Of a stretch of DNA of 64,000 nt, positions 13,508-64,000 are shown one piece after another. The stretch's first letter is position 1, and the number at the start of each line of letters is the position of its first letter. The position numbers were made by a program, and so were the translations under genes. The stretch comes from a virus. The notes beneath the pieces are model-generated. The model ran no database searches. It saw nothing but the letters and a program-made list of their open reading frames with translations, and was not told where the DNA came from. The stretch spans positions 43,929-107,928 of IMG/VR virus record IMGVR_UViG_3300011115_000717; one strand, 5' to 3'.

Positions 13508-13788
13508 TGGCACTTCTTCAAATAATACAATCTCAAAATGGTGTTCCTGCCAATTATTGGAAAATTACATCTGTAGTTTTCAATTTGAGTGGATCGTGCA
13601 CCATAAGAGTTGATGGGTATTTTGATGAGACTGCTCGGAGAGATAATTATGATGCTATGAAGTATTTTTCCTACACAGTGGATTCTGCAAATATGGCAAC
13701 TGTATTTCCAACAGGATTCAATCTTATGGCTGCGTATGATTATGTGAAAACACAAGTAGAGTTTTCGTTTGGTTCTGTTGATGTGTGA
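13507..13788 (+). CDS. Small fibre-associated (chaperone-like) protein
   Basis: GVPANYWKI...AYDYVKTQVEF..SVDV pattern typical of small genes after fibre genes; TAATG coupling. Confidence 0.6.
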   Translation: MALLQIIQSQNGVPANYWKITSVVFNLSGSCTIRVDGYFDETARRDNYDAMKYFSYTVDSANMATVFPTGFNLMAAYDYVKTQVEFSFGSVDV

Positions 13789-13812
13789 TTATTTAATTGA
13801 GAAAGAATATAA

Positions 13813-29071: not shown

Positions 29072-29359
29072 TTAATTACCCCTACGCTCAGTAGCCGCAT
29101 CTAGATTGCGTCTAAAGCGTTTGGGCATTCCGGGCTTCATCTTAGCCATTAATTCGTTCCAAGCTCCCCCAGTGGCTTTATTGGCACTTATAGTGGCATC
29201 CACAGCCATCGCCACACTCTCACCAACATAATTTCTTACTATTTTCTTCTTCTTGCATTTTGGGCAAGGATTGCTCAATGGAACTGTATTATCTTTCATA
29301 GATAATGTTTCATCAAAAGTATGTTTGCACGATTCACAGACAAAAGCATAGATTGGCAT
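29072..29359 (-). CDS. FmdB-family zinc-ribbon protein
   Basis: MPIY.F.C.SC...F.E...PCPKC. Confidence 0.85.
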   Translation of the reverse strand: MPIYAFVCESCKHTFDETLSMKDNTVPLSNPCPKCKKKKIVRNYVGESVAMAVDATISANKATGGAWNELMAKMKPGMPKRFRRNLDAATERRGN

Positions 29360-29853
29360 TATTTGGTTCTCATAAAAAATTTGATAGCATCTTCAAACAT
29401 AAAATTACGTGTAGGTTCTTTCGGTGTGTTTTCCAAAATCATATTTGCTTCTTTTGGTAACTTACTACCTTTATAAAGATTACACTCTCTGCAACATGCT
29501 ACCATGTTCACCCAAGTACTTCCTCCACCTTTATGGCGTGGAACAATATGATCTACAGTAGCAGATTTATTTGTGAGTTCAATATGGCAGTATTGACATA
29601 CATATTTATCACGTTTGAGAATATTCTTTTTACTCGGGAAACACTTTTTATTTGGTGTCTTCACATAGTACTTTAAAATCAAAACTCTTGGAATTTTGAT
29701 GGTTTCTCTTGCAGAAACAAATTTTAAGATTGATGTATGATTTTCTTCGTAATAGACTTTGTTCTTTCTCATCAAAGACAAAGCTCTGCGCATCGAAATA
29801 ATATTCAATGGGGATTGATCGTAATTCAGAAGAAGTACGGAAGTTTCAAGCAT
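29359..29853 (-). CDS. HNH endonuclease (McrA/HNH_5-like)
   Basis: VLLLN...PL, RDKYVCQYC, TVDHIVPRHKGGGSTWVNMVACCRECN..KG; start probably 29853. Confidence 0.9.
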   Translation of the reverse strand: MLETSVLLLNYDQSPLNIISMRRALSLMRKNKVYYEENHTSILKFVSARETIKIPRVLILKYYVKTPNKKCFPSKKNILKRDKYVCQYCHIELTNKSATVDHIVPRHKGGGSTWVNMVACCRECNLYKGSKLPKEANMILENTPKEPTRNFMFEDAIKFFMRTK

Positions 29854-30033
29854 CTTGGTTGTCAATGGTAAAAAACATGACACTATGCTTTTCTTGTGTT
29901 TGACAACAATATTTTTTATTTTTATACCCATAACTACCTAAAATACGTTCACTGACTGGGTTTGAGATAATCCACGGTACTTTGGGGGAATTGATCATTC
30001 ATTATTATTTATAGAATCCTAAATAATTTAAGT

Positions 30034-56351: not shown

Positions 56352-56640
56352 TTGAATTCTGTCCGAGCCGATAGGCTGATAGTACATTGGCTGATAATAC
56401 ATCTGTTCTCTGCCCATGGATACCCTCTCGGATACCGTCCACAGGAGTTTCAATATACACCAAGGTATCAAGTGATACCATGGGCAGAGGCAGATGCGCC
56501 GAAGTAGCAGAAGATTGGTCTTGCAGAACTCTAGAGAGTTCTGGGTTCACGCTCTCAAGCCCAGACTGCGAGGGGCGAGAGGTGGTTGGTCTGGTAACAC
56601 TCATATACCATATTATACCACATATCAAACTTATTACAAT

Positions 56641-56802
56641 AGTCAAGGTCAAACTTTAGGTTATCACAGATTTTTTTAAATTGTTTCTGATATAGTATTA
56701 TTGGACGCGACCTATCGGCTTTTTGGGGCGTGCAGTAACTATATTCTACCATATGGGGAGTGCTGTGTCAAGGTCCAAATTTTAGTTATCACAGATTTTT
56801 TT
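56641..56802 (+). repeat. ~36-bp direct repeat GTCAAGGTC(C)AAAnTTTAG(G)TTATCACAGATTTTTTT (x2), each upstream of a minus-strand promoter
   Basis: ~56642-56677 and ~56767-56802. Confidence 0.8.
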
Positions 56803-56898
56803 GTTGATAGGCTGGGGGCTGATAGGACAACGTCCGATAATTATTATTTTTTTATTGGAAACACCCAGGCGCTCTCCCTGGGTGGAGATAAAATAAAA

Positions 56899-59529: not shown

Positions 59530-60498
59530 TTAGATACTGACTGTAGTAGGCATGGTGGTTTGCTTAACCACTTCTTCGATGACCGGGGCAGACGGAACGA
59601 CCTCTGCCACCGGGATTGGATTGATCGTTGGATCAATCTTTGTGTAAAGATTCCAAAACGCTTCCTGAGTGTCTCTGTCGAACCGATTCAGGGACAGGCG
59701 AACAGCCTTCTCCTTGTCGTGGAACACAGCGTAACCCTTCACGATTCCAAGCAGACGGCGAGTGGAGACGATCTTGTCCAAGGCACCTTCCGCATACCCC
59801 TTACGAATGGTTTCAGCCCACTTCGTAAGGTAGTTGGCGAAATCGTCATCCCGACAGTTGCGCTCGGACATCATCCGAATCACAATGCGAGTCTCGACTG
59901 CACGAGGAGCGTACTCCTGCTCGTAGGTGTAATCGAACCGATCCAAGAACGCTTCGTTCTGAACCCGTGTTCCCACGAACATATCGTCCCCACCACCGTC
60001 ACCCTTAGTATTGGCAGTTGCCACAATCATGAACCCCGGAGCAGGGCGCACGAACTCCGAAATCTTCTTGATGAAGATACCCTTGCCCTCCAAGACTGGC
60101 TGCAAGCACATGATGCGCTCAGAGGCGAGATCGACCTCATCCAAGAGGAGAACAGCCCCACGCTTCATTGCTTCGATGGCAGCACCGTACACGAACACGG
60201 TCGAACCATTGTGAAGACGGAAACCACCGATGAGATCGTCCTCGTCAGTCTCTGCTGTGATGTTGGCACGAATGCACTCACGATTGGCATTGGCACAGGC
60301 TTGCTCAACCATAGTGGTCTTACCATTACCGGACAGCCCGGTAACATACAGAGTGGTAAAGTCGTTGTTGCGGACGAACTTCTCTACATCATCGAAGTGA
60401 CCCCAAGGTACATACGATGGCGTGATGGCGGGAATCAGGCTTCCCTTCTCTCCGGTCAGGTTGCTGTTCATTGCGAGATTGATCTGTGAGTCTGTCAT
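59530..60498 (-). CDS. MoxR-family AAA+ ATPase (phage CobS-like)
   Basis: YVPWG.F, GLSGNGKT, ETDEDDLIGGFRL, LLLDEVD, ATANTKG, NEAFLDRF, STRRL. Confidence 0.93.
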   Translation of the reverse strand: MTDSQINLAMNSNLTGEKGSLIPAITPSYVPWGHFDDVEKFVRNNDFTTLYVTGLSGNGKTTMVEQACANANRECIRANITAETDEDDLIGGFRLHNGSTVFVYGAAIEAMKRGAVLLLDEVDLASERIMCLQPVLEGKGIFIKKISEFVRPAPGFMIVATANTKGDGGGDDMFVGTRVQNEAFLDRFDYTYEQEYAPRAVETRIVIRMMSERNCRDDDFANYLTKWAETIRKGYAEGALDKIVSTRRLLGIVKGYAVFHDKEKAVRLSLNRFDRDTQEAFWNLYTKIDPTINPIPVAEVVPSAPVIEEVVKQTTMPTTVSI

Positions 60499-60641
60499 AC
60501 GGTTCCTTCTGTTGCTTCGGCACAAGGACGATCCTCGTGATGTGTATATGGTAACCGAACTTGCACAAGATTGCTAGTCAATACCTCGCAATATTGTCAA
60601 GATTCATAAAAAAATATATTTGAAATCCGAGGAGATTTTTC

Positions 60642-60730
60642 TTGACATCTGTGTGCTTTGTGGTATAATGCGCCATCCTGGCCTATCGGCGTTGCTCCGC
60701 AACATTTTAGCCGATAGTACGTCCGATAAT
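60642..60730 (+). ncRNA. Promoter-driven small hairpin element, copy 1
   Basis: TTGACA-16nt-TATAAT, then CCTATCGGC-GTTGC-TCC-GCAAC-ATTTTA-GCCGATAG-TA-CGTCCGATAAT; no + strand ORF follows. Confidence 0.55.
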
Positions 60731-60776
60731 AAAAATTAATAATAAATTAATATAAAATAATTTTAAATAAAATAAC

Positions 60777-60807
60777 CCCACACCGACTCTGACTTCGGTG
60801 TGAGGGG
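60777..60807 (-). terminator. Hairpin terminator after 60828-61091
   Basis: CACACCGA...TCGGTGTG stem followed by T-rich tract on - strand. Confidence 0.7.
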
Positions 60808-60827
60808 AAAGCGGGAGTTGAACAACC

Positions 60828-61091
60828 TTACGAAGGGTATTCGTTCATGCAGCATGAACTCTTTTCGCATTGTTCGCTCATACGAACCAGAGTGTTCTCG
60901 ATTCGATTAAAGCGTTTGTCATTCGTCAAATGATTATGCTCTAATTCACGACTGAGTCCCAGGTCAATTTCCTCAACGCGCTGAAGAACCTCTGACCGAA
61001 AGTTCTTTGCCATCGACTTGATGTAGTACGCTACGAACACAACAACCATCAAACCTGCAACAATCCATCCAATGTTATCTGCTGTAACCAT
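60828..61091 (-). CDS. Single-TM coiled-coil protein
   Basis: N-terminal TM; AAGGAGACACT RBS. Confidence 0.7.
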   Translation of the reverse strand: MVTADNIGWIVAGLMVVVFVAYYIKSMAKNFRSEVLQRVEEIDLGLSRELEHNHLTNDKRFNRIENTLVRMSEQCEKSSCCMNEYPS

Positions 61092-61129
61092 AGTGTCTCC
61101 TTTGTAAAAGTAAGTAACTCAATCACGAA

Positions 61130-61205
61130 TAGAAGGGGCGGGAGTTGCACCCACATATTCGCGCTTATAAGGCACGCGCTCTAACTACAATTCAGCCACC
61201 CTTCT
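61130..61205 (-). tRNA. tRNA-Ile(TAT)
   Basis: AGAAGGG/CCCTTCT-A, CGTGC-CTTATAA-GCGCG, GTGGG-TGCAACT-CCCGC (atypical T-loop). Confidence 0.8.
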
Positions 61206-61374
61206 GTATGACACTACTCTTACGGCGAGTGTCCAACCGGGCAACCATAGGTTACCTCTATACGGTTCCTAACCCGCTTCACGCTTGTCAGTTATGCCGT
61301 CAACCCGAATAAAGTATTATATTTTTTGTGGTGATATACATTACATTGTACCCTCTCCTATGTTGAAAGTCAAG

Positions 61375-61448
61375 CATTCCCGGTTGGACTCGAACCAACG
61401 ACATACAGATTAGAAATCTGTTACTCTATCCAACTGAGTTACGGGAAT
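61375..61448 (-). tRNA. tRNA-Arg(TCT)
   Basis: ATTCCCG/CGGGAAT-G, ACAGA-TTTCTAA-TCTGT, GTTGG-TTCGAGT-CCAAC. Confidence 0.92.
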
Positions 61449-61453
61449 AGAAG

Positions 61454-61526
61454 TAGCGCGGGTGGGACTCGAACCCACACTTGACAGATTTTAAGTCTGT
61501 TGACTCTGCCGTTGGTCTACCGCGCC
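61454..61526 (-). tRNA. tRNA-Leu(TAA) with short variable loop
   Basis: GGCGCGG/CCGCGCT-A, ACAGA-CTTAAAA-TCTGT, 5-nt V-loop, GTGGG-TTCGAGT-CCCAC. Confidence 0.88.
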
Positions 61527-61531
61527 ACACA

Positions 61532-61795
61532 TTATACCAATTCGTACTCGATTGGTTCCCACTTCTTGATGGTGGTCAGAATCACGCTTCGCCACTCACC
61601 GATGTCAAGATCGTAGATTCGCTGAACACCGGGCGAGTCTGCCTTCTTGTTGTCCTTCGATGGGTGGTCAACCTTGGGAACCTTCTTGAGATCGGTGGTT
61701 CCGTTCAGAGTGCGAGTGGTTCCGTCCTTCTTACGAAAGACAACCTTGACGATCAGCCCGTCATTCAATGCTTTGACAAATCCCGATGATGGCAT
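61532..61795 (-). CDS. WYL-like / SH3 beta-barrel (DUF2693-type) protein
   Basis: V.V.FRKKDGTTR.L.GT.D...YDLD.GEWRS. Confidence 0.8.
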   Translation of the reverse strand: MPSSGFVKALNDGLIVKVVFRKKDGTTRTLNGTTDLKKVPKVDHPSKDNKKADSPGVQRIYDLDIGEWRSVILTTIKKWEPIEYELV

Positions 61796-61796
61796 C

Positions 61797-62072
61797 TTAG
61801 TCCTCCGTGCGGTAGTAGTCAGCGTCTTCTTGGTGACTGATTTGGTGCGAGATGATGGCTTCCGTGGCTTCTTCTTCGTCTGCATAGGTTTCGACATTCT
61901 CAATTTCTCCGCTAAGGTGGTTCTGAAAGATAACAAGGATCTCCTCGTTACCAAGGGTGTACGCCGTGGCAAACATATCTCCCAAGTCTACTTCGCCCAT
62001 ATCCCACTTGTCAGCGAGATCAGGGTTTGCGAGAATGTCTTCAGCCAATTCAAACAGGTCGATCTCTTTCAT
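61797..62072 (-). CDS. Highly acidic small early protein, leaderless
   Basis: 26 D/E vs 3 K/R in 91 aa; TTGACA-17nt-TATCAT. Confidence 0.7.
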   Translation of the reverse strand: MKEIDLFELAEDILANPDLADKWDMGEVDLGDMFATAYTLGNEEILVIFQNHLSGEIENVETYADEEEATEAIISHQISHQEDADYYRTED

Positions 62073-62103
62073 ACGAGTATGATATCCGATTTAGGGGTGA
62101 ATG

Positions 62104-62400
62104 TCAACGAATAATTGGAAAAGTTTTGAAATGTTCGATCAGGGGTTCAAGGTAGTCGAAGTACTCTTCGCTCAGGTAACTCTCTGTGCCTCGCAGCCCA
62201 ACAGAGACACAACTGACATCTTCAAAGATTGGAAGATTGTCCTCACCAAACCTACAGTCAATGCAGAGGTCACTACCGCTGTTCAGAATGAAGTAGTAAA
62301 ACTCACCCACACGCTTCCAACTGTACTCTGTCTCTCCTTCGGTGTAGTCACCCTTGAGCGGAATGTCGTAAACGATTTGTGTTGTTTCTTTGTCTGTCAT
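62104..62400 (-). CDS. Acidic hypothetical protein
   Basis: GGAG RBS, operon geometry. Confidence 0.65.
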   Translation of the reverse strand: MTDKETTQIVYDIPLKGDYTEGETEYSWKRVGEFYYFILNSGSDLCIDCRFGEDNLPIFEDVSCVSVGLRGTESYLSEEYFDYLEPLIEHFKTFPIIR

Positions 62401-62404
62401 TGTG

Positions 62405-62614
62405 TTAACTCCGTTCCATGTAGCAGCAGAAGGAACACATCACGGCGGGTGATCCTGCGGGCTTTCCATCACGAATACCCTCCGCAGCGGGAATGTCGCG
62501 AGAAAGTTTGGCGATCTTATTGCTGGTCTTCTCCGTCAACGTCTGCTGGCAGTAGTCGCACTTCAGTTTGGCGGTCGGGTTTGCTACGATTGTGAATACT
62601 GGGAATACTGACAT
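62405..62614 (-). CDS. Small zinc-finger protein
   Basis: CDYC...CSFC; AAGGAGACACT RBS. Confidence 0.65.
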   Translation of the reverse strand: MSVFPVFTIVANPTAKLKCDYCQQTLTEKTSNKIAKLSRDIPAAEGIRDGKPAGSPAVMCSFCCYMERS

Positions 62615-62624
62615 AGTGTCTCCT

Positions 62625-62792
62625 TTAGAATCCAATGGCGAACTCGCCATCCTTATCCATTTTAGTGAGTTGTTTACTAGCCCAATGATGAATGTCGTTT
62701 GCTGAATCGTAGATGACTACGGGACGATACCGTAGATCCGGATCCTTGTCGATTGCTTCATTGATTATTTTTAATATTGTGTCGTATGTCAT
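62625..62792 (-). CDS. Small hypothetical protein (55 aa, not in ORF track)
   Basis: AAGGAG RBS; MTYDTILKIINEAIDKDPDLRYRPVVIYD... Confidence 0.6.
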   Translation of the reverse strand: MTYDTILKIINEAIDKDPDLRYRPVVIYDSANDIHHWASKQLTKMDKDGEFAIGF

Positions 62793-62805
62793 TGTATCTC
62801 CTTAG

Positions 62806-62878
62806 TGGGATCGGTGGGGCTCGAACCCACGACCAAGAAATTAAAAGTTTCCTGCGCTACCAACTGCGCTACGATCCC
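62806..62878 (-). tRNA. tRNA-Lys(TTT)
   Basis: GGGATCG/CGATCCC-A, GGAAA-CTTTTAA-TTTCT, GTGGG-TTCGAGC-CCCAC. Confidence 0.93.
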
Positions 62879-63032
62879 AAACTTGGAGACCCTGTTTCAG
62901 CCGGGTCTCCACCCGCTCACCTGCTTTGTACGGCTCACTAGGATTTTAGTGGCTACGGTTGCCCTGAATACAGTCTTCATTTCGAGCATCTACTGCGCTC
63001 TAGTTTAACTGACTTACATCAAGGCTAGTGGT

Positions 63033-63335
63033 TTATGCGCCCTCCACCATGATTGCCAACTGACCCAATGCCATCAGGTTGATGATCAACGCCTTCTCGA
63101 CCGGAGTGAACATATCCGGAGTGTTGTCCTCCATCATCTTGTTGATGGAGCGAAGAATCAGTTCGCGGCACTCAGCATCCTGATACCAAACCATGCCACT
63201 CTCGTCCACGGCGGACAGAACTGCGTACTGAATGGAGGCGAGGATCTCGCTGATCTGTGGCTTACGGTTGCTGTTTGCTGCTGCTACGATTGTCGATTGC
63301 AACTGTGCAATCTCGCTGTCACTTAGAATCGGCAT
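63033..63335 (-). CDS. Hypothetical protein
   Basis: AAGGAGACACT RBS. Confidence 0.65.
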   Translation of the reverse strand: MPILSDSEIAQLQSTIVAAANSNRKPQISEILASIQYAVLSAVDESGMVWYQDAECRELILRSINKMMEDNTPDMFTPVEKALIINLMALGQLAIMVEGA

Positions 63336-63344
63336 AGTGTCTCC

Positions 63345-63488
63345 TTAGTCGTTGTCGAGGTTATCAATCAGGGATTCAATCTCATCGTCTACGGGTTCCC
63401 AACGCCCCTGTAGACAGGCTTCGTCTTCGATGTGGTCTGTGTCTTCGTCGTCATCGTCCCAATCCATTGCTACTTTGGTGATCTTCAT
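63345..63488 (-). CDS. Very acidic micro-protein (not in ORF track), leaderless
   Basis: MKITKVAMDWDDDEDTDHIEDEACLQGRWEPVDDEIESLIDNLDND; TACCAT -10 just upstream. Confidence 0.55.
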   Translation of the reverse strand: MKITKVAMDWDDDDEDTDHIEDEACLQGRWEPVDDEIESLIDNLDND

Positions 63489-63548
63489 GGCGGTATGGTA
63501 TCCTATGTAAGAGGTTTGTTCAACAACAATATCGAAACTTTGTAAGAT

Positions 63549-63836
63549 TTATCCACGGTTCAGGTAGCGTTCGTAGGATGAATCATCCATCGATTCACCT
63601 GTACCGCTGTAGTAGCGGTCATCACGACCTTCATCTTCAGGTGGTTCTAGTGTACCTGCTGCCTCTGCTGCTAGGTATTTTTTGGTTCGAAACAAATCAC
63701 GCAAGCGTTTAGGTTGTAGGTCAGCGGCTCGGTCTGCGGCTTCGATGCAGCCCGGGCACAGCCCGTCTACATATGCTTCAAAGGTTGAGCAGGTGCATGG
63801 CATTTCATCGGCGGGGGTTGTTGGGGTGATGTCCAT
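63549..63836 (-). CDS. Hypothetical protein with CxC...CxxC, leaderless
   Basis: TTGACT-16nt-TACCAT (63870-63843). Confidence 0.65.
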   Translation of the reverse strand: MDITPTTPADEMPCTCSTFEAYVDGLCPGCIEAADRAADLQPKRLRDLFRTKKYLAAEAAGTLEPPEDEGRDDRYYSGTGESMDDSSYERYLNRG

Positions 63837-63926
63837 GCGAGTATGGTAACACAATTCAAAGTAGAGTCAATACTATTCTTCAATATTCGATCAAAAAGAT
63901 TTTCTATAAATCTTGGCGGAATTGTC

Positions 63927-64000
63927 TTGACATCCAAACTTAAGTGGGTATACTCCCATCCCGCGTCCTATCGGCGTTGCTTCGCAACATTATAGCCGAT
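63927..64000 (+). ncRNA. Promoter-driven small hairpin element, copy 2 (truncated by window end)
   Basis: TTGACA-16nt-TATACT, then CCTATCGGCGTTGCTTCGCAACATTATAGCCGAT, near-identical to 60682-60715. Confidence 0.55.

Follow-up and report, generated by a model that had tools for sequence, protein, structure and literature searches.

The window analysed here, the last 64 kb of a 107,928-bp phage contig in IMG/VR (record IMGVR_UViG_3300011115_000717), contains a repeated intergenic cassette in which a consensus sigma-70 promoter directed against the early genes is followed by a short inverted repeat. The phage is a freshwater, T4-like relative of the cyanophages, and the nearest cultured relatives of its CobS-like ATPase are T4-like cyanophages. 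Judged from its sequence, each copy is a unit of a lineage-specific cassette of the PeSL (promoter-early stem-loop) kind, whose backward promoter, inverted repeat and leaderless gene starts are undescribed additions to this plan. In the preferred reading, which is tentative and falls a little short of an even chance, the backward promoter of this regulatory and recombination cassette would produce a short non-coding RNA that starts with a hairpin and acts mainly in cis.

Architecture of the cassette in the window

Read in the direction of the genes (minus strand), the unit consists of the terminator of the upstream gene, an A/T tract, the inverted repeat, the backward promoter, an A/T-rich spacer of about 57 bp and the forward promoter of the next gene. 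The window holds two such copies, a split third copy and a remnant, with the following features:

60548-60584, minus strand: copy 1 forward promoter region, upstream of the CobS-like gene, with the boxes TTGACT (60583-60578) and TACCAT (60556-60551)
60642-60669, plus strand: copy 1 backward promoter, TTGACA-16-TATAAT (12/12), with a TG preceding the -10 box
60682-60717, plus strand: copy 1 type A hairpin, with outer stem CCTATCGGC/GCCGATAG, inner stem-loop GTTGC-TCC-GCAAC and the 3' bulge ATTTTA
60725-60775, no strand assigned: copy 1 tract of 51 nt, nearly pure A/T, between hairpin and terminator
60776-60807, minus strand: intrinsic terminator of the gene upstream of copy 1, with a T-run on the minus strand only
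63834-63870, minus strand: copy 2 forward promoter, TTGACT-16-TACCAT, then 6 nt and the ATG at 63836, a leaderless mRNA start
63927-63954, plus strand: copy 2 backward promoter, TTGACA-16-TATACT (11/12)
63967-64000, plus strand: copy 2 type A hairpin, ending in GCCGAT at the contig end
56711-56841, plus strand: split third copy, with the 5' arm CCTATCGGC at 56711-56719 and the 3' arm GCTGATAGG plus the flank ACAACGTCCGATAAT at 56818-56841
56367-56385, plus strand: arm remnant GCCGATAGGCTGATAGTAC, without promoter and without partner arm

The initial annotation had described two copies of a divergent-promoter cassette lying opposite early genes and had proposed that it is multicopy. Coordinates, promoters and hairpins were all found as described, the minus-strand motif GTATTGACT..GTTACCATA is indeed shared by both copies, no plus-strand open reading frame (ORF) follows copy 1, and further copies were found in the window and in relatives. 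The two differences between the hairpins of copies 1 and 2 lie in the loop and in the bulge, which agrees with the proposal that only unpaired positions differ. A 34-nt core of the cassette has two matches in the window, which are also the only two in the complete 107.9-kb contig, and none in 100 shuffled sequences. In a promoter scan of the region 56-64 kb, the copy 1 backward promoter is the top match, and that of copy 2 ties for second place with two minus-strand sites. The contig ends (base 64000) inside copy 2; in relatives, the final GCCGAT of this copy is followed by AGG, an A/T-rich stretch and then a terminator.

The arms of the split copy are about 100 nt apart and enclose a minus-strand promoter (TTGACA-17-TAGAAT, 56771-56743), and its backward promoter is degenerate. 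In the segment 56642-56802, a minus-strand promoter together with an upstream box (AAAAAAATCTGTGATAAC..TTGAC) occurs in two tandem copies 125 bp apart, one of which sits between the arms of the split hairpin.

Copies in related phages

Exact-pattern scans recovered the cassette in only one tight phage clade, on 13 contigs, of which seven are from IMG/VR (including the present one) and six from JGI lake metagenomes. The fuller close relatives carry seven intact copies, one split copy and one remnant, five of the intact copies lying past copy 2. In the fullest relative, G001, the seven intact copies (c1-c7) occupy about 9 kb beyond the CobS gene at distances of 0.9-2.8 kb, and all are antisense to the genes. 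Only the arms of 8-9 bp are conserved in the hairpin, while interiors and tails vary between copies. Type A interiors (c1, c2) are built from a nested stem, GTTGC-TYC-GCAAC, with the bulge AUUWUA; type B interiors (c3-c7) read TATCGGC-GGCTAC-GCCGATT(C)-GCCGATA and thereby offer the 5' arm two alternative 3' repeats as pairing partners.

The copies also differ in what follows the hairpin. In c1-c4, an A/T tract of 38-75 nt precedes the terminator, and in c5-c7 the hairpin leads straight into a long G+C-rich hairpin. These long hairpins (GCGACAGCACCCGG..CCGGGTGCTGTCGC; positions 2100-3050 of L007, minus strand, and paralogues) lack a T-run on either strand and are therefore doubtful as terminators.

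The A/T tracts raise the question of replication origins of the R-loop type, in which the transcript would stay hybridised within the tract and prime the leading strand. T4 oriF and oriG combine a promoter with a DNA-unwinding element, and the tracts of c1-c4, which are nearly pure A/T in a region of about 50% G+C, begin some 8-10 nt after the hairpin. An origin function is nevertheless quite improbable, since c5-c7 have no tract, the T-run of the converging terminator accounts for a portion of every tract, and it would be unusual for 17 kb to hold seven or eight origins. In addition, the contig ends described below are symmetric on both strands and not limited to the strand that a backward transcript could prime.

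A degenerate-pattern scan of the sequence collection returned chance matches only. In an unrelated organism (L086, L092 and L093 of the metagenome scan), a TATAAT box is followed after 10 nt by a hairpin with the same 8-nt arms, CTATCAGCCCG..CGGGCTGATAG; this likeness is probably due to chance.

Conservation of the backward promoter

Among the seven paralogues, the -35 box of the backward promoter is 100% and the -10 box 90% identical; the spacers are only 46% identical yet fixed at 16 nt. In comparisons of orthologues from different samples, none of 84 hexamer columns varies (0/84), against 11/168 columns of spacer and leader and 199/1542 other columns. Some search patterns included the -10 box and the arms, which partly biases these counts; the -35 box was in no pattern by which contigs were first retrieved and was used only in a later confirmatory scan. 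These comparisons show purifying selection on the hexamers, and the backward promoter thus looks functional. The hairpin begins 4-14 nt past the backward -10 box and would therefore be located at or near the 5' end of the RNA.

Folding and variation of the hairpin

Fold energies across the hairpins range from -13 to -24 kcal/mol, and longer constructs reach z values of -3 to -7 relative to shuffled sequences; the copy 1 hairpin folds with -15.6 to -16.7 kcal/mol (z = -3.2), and its variation among strains is confined to loop and bulge. Seven stem pairs are invariant, and one changes from G-C to A-U in a compensatory manner in 2 of 17 distinct sequences. The A-U variants also carry an altered proximal repeat in type B, so that all three repeats change together. 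The search patterns also admitted non-complementary purine/pyrimidine combinations, and none was seen. Pairing thus survives the variation between strains, a point that the initial annotation had proposed to check: no pair is broken and one compensatory change occurs. The covariation is modest, and the strongest signal is the invariance of the arm sequence itself, which could result from sequence recognition or from gene conversion between the copies.

The hairpin was rejected as an intrinsic terminator, as it is followed by AGTAC or AGGCC and A-rich sequence on the plus strand and by GGCC on the minus strand, with no U-run on either. A minus-strand peptide starting inside the hairpin (MLRSNADR..) was rejected as well: it has neither ribosome-binding site nor promoter, its ATG is lost in the G003-type variant through an extra A, and the reading frames of the two copies diverge at once downstream. 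An Rfam search, likewise suggested earlier, found only tRNAs and tmRNA above threshold in the window, the best matches overlapping a cassette having E values of 0.15-2.3 and remaining far below the gathering scores. The type B motif has no exact pattern match among 185,579 bacterial and archaeal genomes (one per species), a search that would miss inexact mimics. Mimicry of a host or CRISPR repeat, as in an RNA anti-CRISPR, is accordingly unlikely.

The same data bear on the possibility of a small RNA acting in trans as a decoy, sponge or regulator, in which one conserved hairpin RNA, made in great excess from seven strong early promoters, would bind a factor of the host or of the phage. Such a role would suit consensus promoters under selection, a conserved hairpin at the RNA 5' end that no ORF follows, the concerted change of the three repeats in the A/T variant, and the ability of the type B 5' arm to pair with either 3' repeat, which would leave GCCGAUAG single-stranded in one fold. 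It is, however, improbable. Only arms of 8-9 nt are shared between the copies, there is neither an Rfam match nor an exact match to the type B motif in the prokaryotic genomes, and the split copy, the remnant and a related hairpin in the relative L012 all occur without a strong backward promoter. The antitoxin or decoy function raised in the initial annotation is likewise not favoured, given that no partner was found and that interiors differ between the copies.

Proposed backward transcription and its possible effects in cis

In the preferred cis-acting reading, host RNA polymerase would fire from the backward promoter right after infection and produce a non-coding RNA of about 60-135 nt, which would begin with the hairpin and run into the converging terminator. 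Backward transcription may shield the next forward promoter from occlusion by polymerases that have escaped the upstream terminator, or it may supply this promoter with negative supercoils. The repeated cassette would in addition offer homology for the shuffling of early-gene modules, and the inverted repeat might also serve as a DNA break point. If the backward transcript matters, a large share of early promoter strength in this phage goes to non-coding antisense RNAs, which calls for an explanation.

Four metatranscriptome runs, holding 7-13% of the sampled words, yielded contigs that cover minus-strand genes. In three lake studies the RNA contigs end at 60527-60532, which is 12-17 nt short of the CobS transcription start predicted from TACCAT and gives a weak hint of an mRNA 5' end near this position. 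No contig of the three lake runs covers the copy 1 cassette; as an RNA of 60-135 nt is not expected in such data, these runs count neither for nor against it. Some contigs (X1) cross intergenic DNA, which could reflect DNA carry-over or read-through.

Several observations weigh against backward transcription as the main function. Most terminators lack a U-run in the plus direction, and the end of the RNA is therefore uncertain. Insulation and supercoiling are effects that are deduced only. The relative L012, with 65% CobS identity, keeps a related hairpin (ATCAGCC..GGCTGATAGTAG) after the orthologous gene; it has 13 leaderless forward promoters within 6 kb, often right after the preceding stop codon, and no backward promoter was found in this dense array. 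Because L012 has the hairpin without backward promoters, the hairpin may be independent of them. Moreover, the arms are identical across paralogues, which exceeds what a stabilising 5' hairpin needs, and the contig ends at the arms point to an event at the DNA level.

The initial annotation had also offered RNA polymerase-driven entry of the genome. This role was set aside and is not favoured, because the promoters are scattered in an internal early region of a T4-like genome, as judged from general knowledge of such phages.

Contig ends at the arms

Nine of 20 inspected termini, located on 8 of the 13 cassette-bearing contigs and stemming from different samples, fall exactly at CCT^ATCGGC / GCCGAT^AG of the arms. 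Each of the nine retains the entire hairpin core and reads 5'-ATCGGC inward.

Termini by copy: G000 and G003 at c2; L088 at c3 and at the split copy; L089 at c4; L090, L094 and a 3300044641 contig at c5; G006 at a c6-type copy
Termini by side: position 64000 of the window; the end of L003; both ends of L088; the starts of L089, L090, L094 and L071; the end of L054

Among unrelated contigs, only 2 of 116 termini are able to fold likewise, which does not support a general tendency of assemblers towards foldable contig ends. Adapter trimming (Illumina) and k-mer repeat confusion were rejected by reasoning: the shared part is about 6-9 nt, and arms of 9 nt are too short to confuse assemblers that use a k of 21 or more. 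A break caused by repeats or strain variation should, by the same reasoning, come after GCCGATAG and not after GCCGAT. The assembly ends suggest, as a strong hint short of a finding, real DNA ends at the arms, and the inverted repeat may thus also be a point of DNA breakage and gene shuffling. Cleavage of both strands at (C/A)CT^ATCGGC followed by filling-in of the 5' overhangs would produce this pattern. The same ends would be left by run-off replication at such nicks or by a cruciform resolved 2-3 nt inside the stem.

These ends raise the possibility, less likely than not, that the inverted repeat serves chiefly as a target on DNA. Each strand would be cut at (C/A)CT^ATCGGC by a nuclease that nicks DNA or cleaves junctions, through staggered nicks or the resolution of cruciforms, and the double-strand ends thus formed at each boundary between early operons would feed recombination-dependent replication and module shuffling. 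Divergent transcription could help to unwind the repeat. The proposal is compatible with cis-acting backward transcription. Beyond the excess of termini at one exact position over the control, it draws on the sequence invariance of the arms across paralogues and on the recovery of both left and right fragments, for example at c5. One end of L088 coincides exactly with the 5' arm of the split copy, and since some 100 nt separate this arm from its partner, nicking at a specific sequence is a better explanation for this terminus than the cutting of a cruciform. The T^A position would agree with the action of T4 endonuclease VII, which cleaves junctions a few nucleotides to their 3' side, and one candidate nuclease was found:

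29359-29931, minus strand: HNH/endonuclease VII-like ORF of 190 aa, common to G001 and G003

On the other hand, nothing connects this ORF with the site, and neither GIY-YIG nor HUH nucleases were found in the related contigs, which make 9-59% of the genomes available; PF01797 (Y1/HUH transposase) was not found in five related contigs (9-59% complete). Cleavage is deduced from assembly ends alone, all affected contigs are of JGI type, so that a pipeline-specific artefact is possible, and other contigs cross up to eight cassettes unbroken. A DNA target also does not by itself account for the conservation of the backward promoter. In a stronger and rather unlikely proposal, the arms are the target of programmed site-specific cleavage, either by nicks on both strands at CCT^ATCGGC or by resolution of a hairpin extruded by transcription. 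Double-strand ends would then arise at every early-operon boundary, and opening of the repeat would be the purpose of the backward promoter.

If the ends are real, the breakage step of module shuffling becomes directly testable. If cleavage occurs, it would provide a physical mechanism for PeSL-type shuffling or a start of recombination-dependent replication in T4-like phages. In practical terms, the cassettes fragment metagenomic assemblies of this phage group.

Exchange of modules between cassettes

At the c6 position, three different hairpin interiors are found among strains, one of which carries the hairpin and terminator of c5. In G002, about 1.1 kb including c7 is deleted, and the junction lies inside the c6 terminator, which ends in a tail like those of c7 and c4. 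In G001, c4 is followed by an insertion of 409 bp, which the conserved box GGAGTAGGT delimits. Four gaps separate the aligned blocks of G001 and G002. Of the three that were inspected, two have their start at the terminator of a cassette (after c4; at c6/c7) and the third is an indel of whole genes within an operon. These alignments show that hairpin-plus-terminator modules are exchanged between copies and that indels of close relatives end at cassettes. The recombination cassette that the initial annotation had listed among its options fits both the module swapping and the cassette-bounded indels.

The box GGAGTAGGT (CCTACTCC on the gene strand) is located between stop codon and terminator in several cassettes, directly past each long terminator hairpin in L007/G001 and L005/G002 (for example G001 13760-13790 in window orientation), and it marks indel junctions between G001 and G002.

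Genes around the cassettes

Between about 56 and 64 kb, every gene is on the minus strand, including those for the CobS-like AAA ATPase and a WYL_2 protein, four tRNAs and small ORFans. The genes between cassettes in the clade are mostly small ORFans on one strand, besides the tRNAs and CobS, and this location matches the early variable (hyperplastic) region in which PeSLs occur. G+C content of the early region is about 50%. Two genes flank copy 1:

59530-60498, minus strand: CobS-like ATPase gene, downstream of the copy 1 forward promoter
60828-61091, minus strand: gene upstream of the copy 1 cassette, served by the terminator at 60776-60807

The early genes that face cassettes are mostly leaderless and on the minus strand. 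Many early genes have the layout TTGACA-16/17-TAYNAT-N6-ATG, which places the ATG 5-7 nt past a sigma-70 -10 box. Copy 1 is an exception among the first genes, as CobS has a leader with a ribosome-binding site; its forward hexamers are spaced by an atypical 22 nt. Examples of leaderless starts with the -10/N6/ATG layout are:

62107-62070, 63870-63834, 54193, 43787, 42192 and 41360, minus strand
15317 and 17175, plus strand

Two small genes at 62397-62787 of the window, one with a zinc-ribbon-like motif, are missing from G001, and this deletion is bounded by start codons that have GTCATTGT in common.

Comparison with known systems

PeSLs (Arbiol et al. 2010, PMC2839356; Comeau et al. 2014, PMC4122927) combine a terminator with a promoter, separate early ORFs, recombine with each other and have indels as neighbours. 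They have been proposed to drive the shuffling of early genes in T4-like phages. The present cassette shares with them a repeated terminator and sigma-70 promoter between small early ORFs, an A/T-rich part, recombination between copies, and adjacent indels and gene swaps; formation of mini-circles by recombination between neighbouring cassettes is a further feature of PeSLs. Each phage copy has the terminator and the promoter in gene direction, but 150-250 nt comprising the inverted repeat and the backward promoter intervene. Described PeSLs run from stem-loop through promoter and Shine-Dalgarno sequence to start codon, all in gene direction. The Shine-Dalgarno and start-codon end is not seen in this phage, in which most first genes start 6 nt after the -10 box and are leaderless, copy 1 (CobS) being an exception. 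The word "antisense" occurs nowhere in the main text of the 2010 PeSL paper (PMC2839356), and no description of a backward promoter or inverted repeat was found in the accessible parts of PMC2839356 or PMC4122927. The clade thus adds two conserved, undescribed parts to the PeSL plan, a backward consensus promoter and an inverted repeat.

The OOP RNA of phage lambda offers a parallel for transcription against an operon, as it combines a strong opposing promoter with a short structured non-coding transcript; here, too, the transcript would overlap the 3' end of the upstream gene. In contrast to the cassette, OOP is single-copy, and both its transcript and its target have been demonstrated; here there are 7-8 copies, and the putative overlap covers the terminator region only. 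The likeness to T4 oriF and oriG is that four of the seven copies have an A/T-rich stretch, a possible unwinding element, downstream of the promoter. It is limited by the absence of a tract from the other three and by the large copy number.

REP/BIME elements with RAYT transposases are likewise multicopy imperfect palindromes after genes with a short foot, GTAC here and GTAG in REPs. They differ in that no Y1/HUH transposase was found in the available contigs, that the palindrome is joined to a promoter, and that the cassette was found in a phage clade only and, by exact search with the type B motif, not in bacterial genomes. The nicks of T5, phiKMV-like and tf-like phages, as well as cruciform cutting by T4 endonuclease VII, resemble the contig ends in that they fall at one fixed, recurring sequence position. 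The known nicks of these phages are confined to a single strand and have no link with promoter cassettes, whereas the ends at the arms involve both strands of an inverted repeat and come from assemblies only. The putative cut in the phage cassette lies 2-3 nt inside the stem, as it does in cruciform cutting by T4 endonuclease VII.

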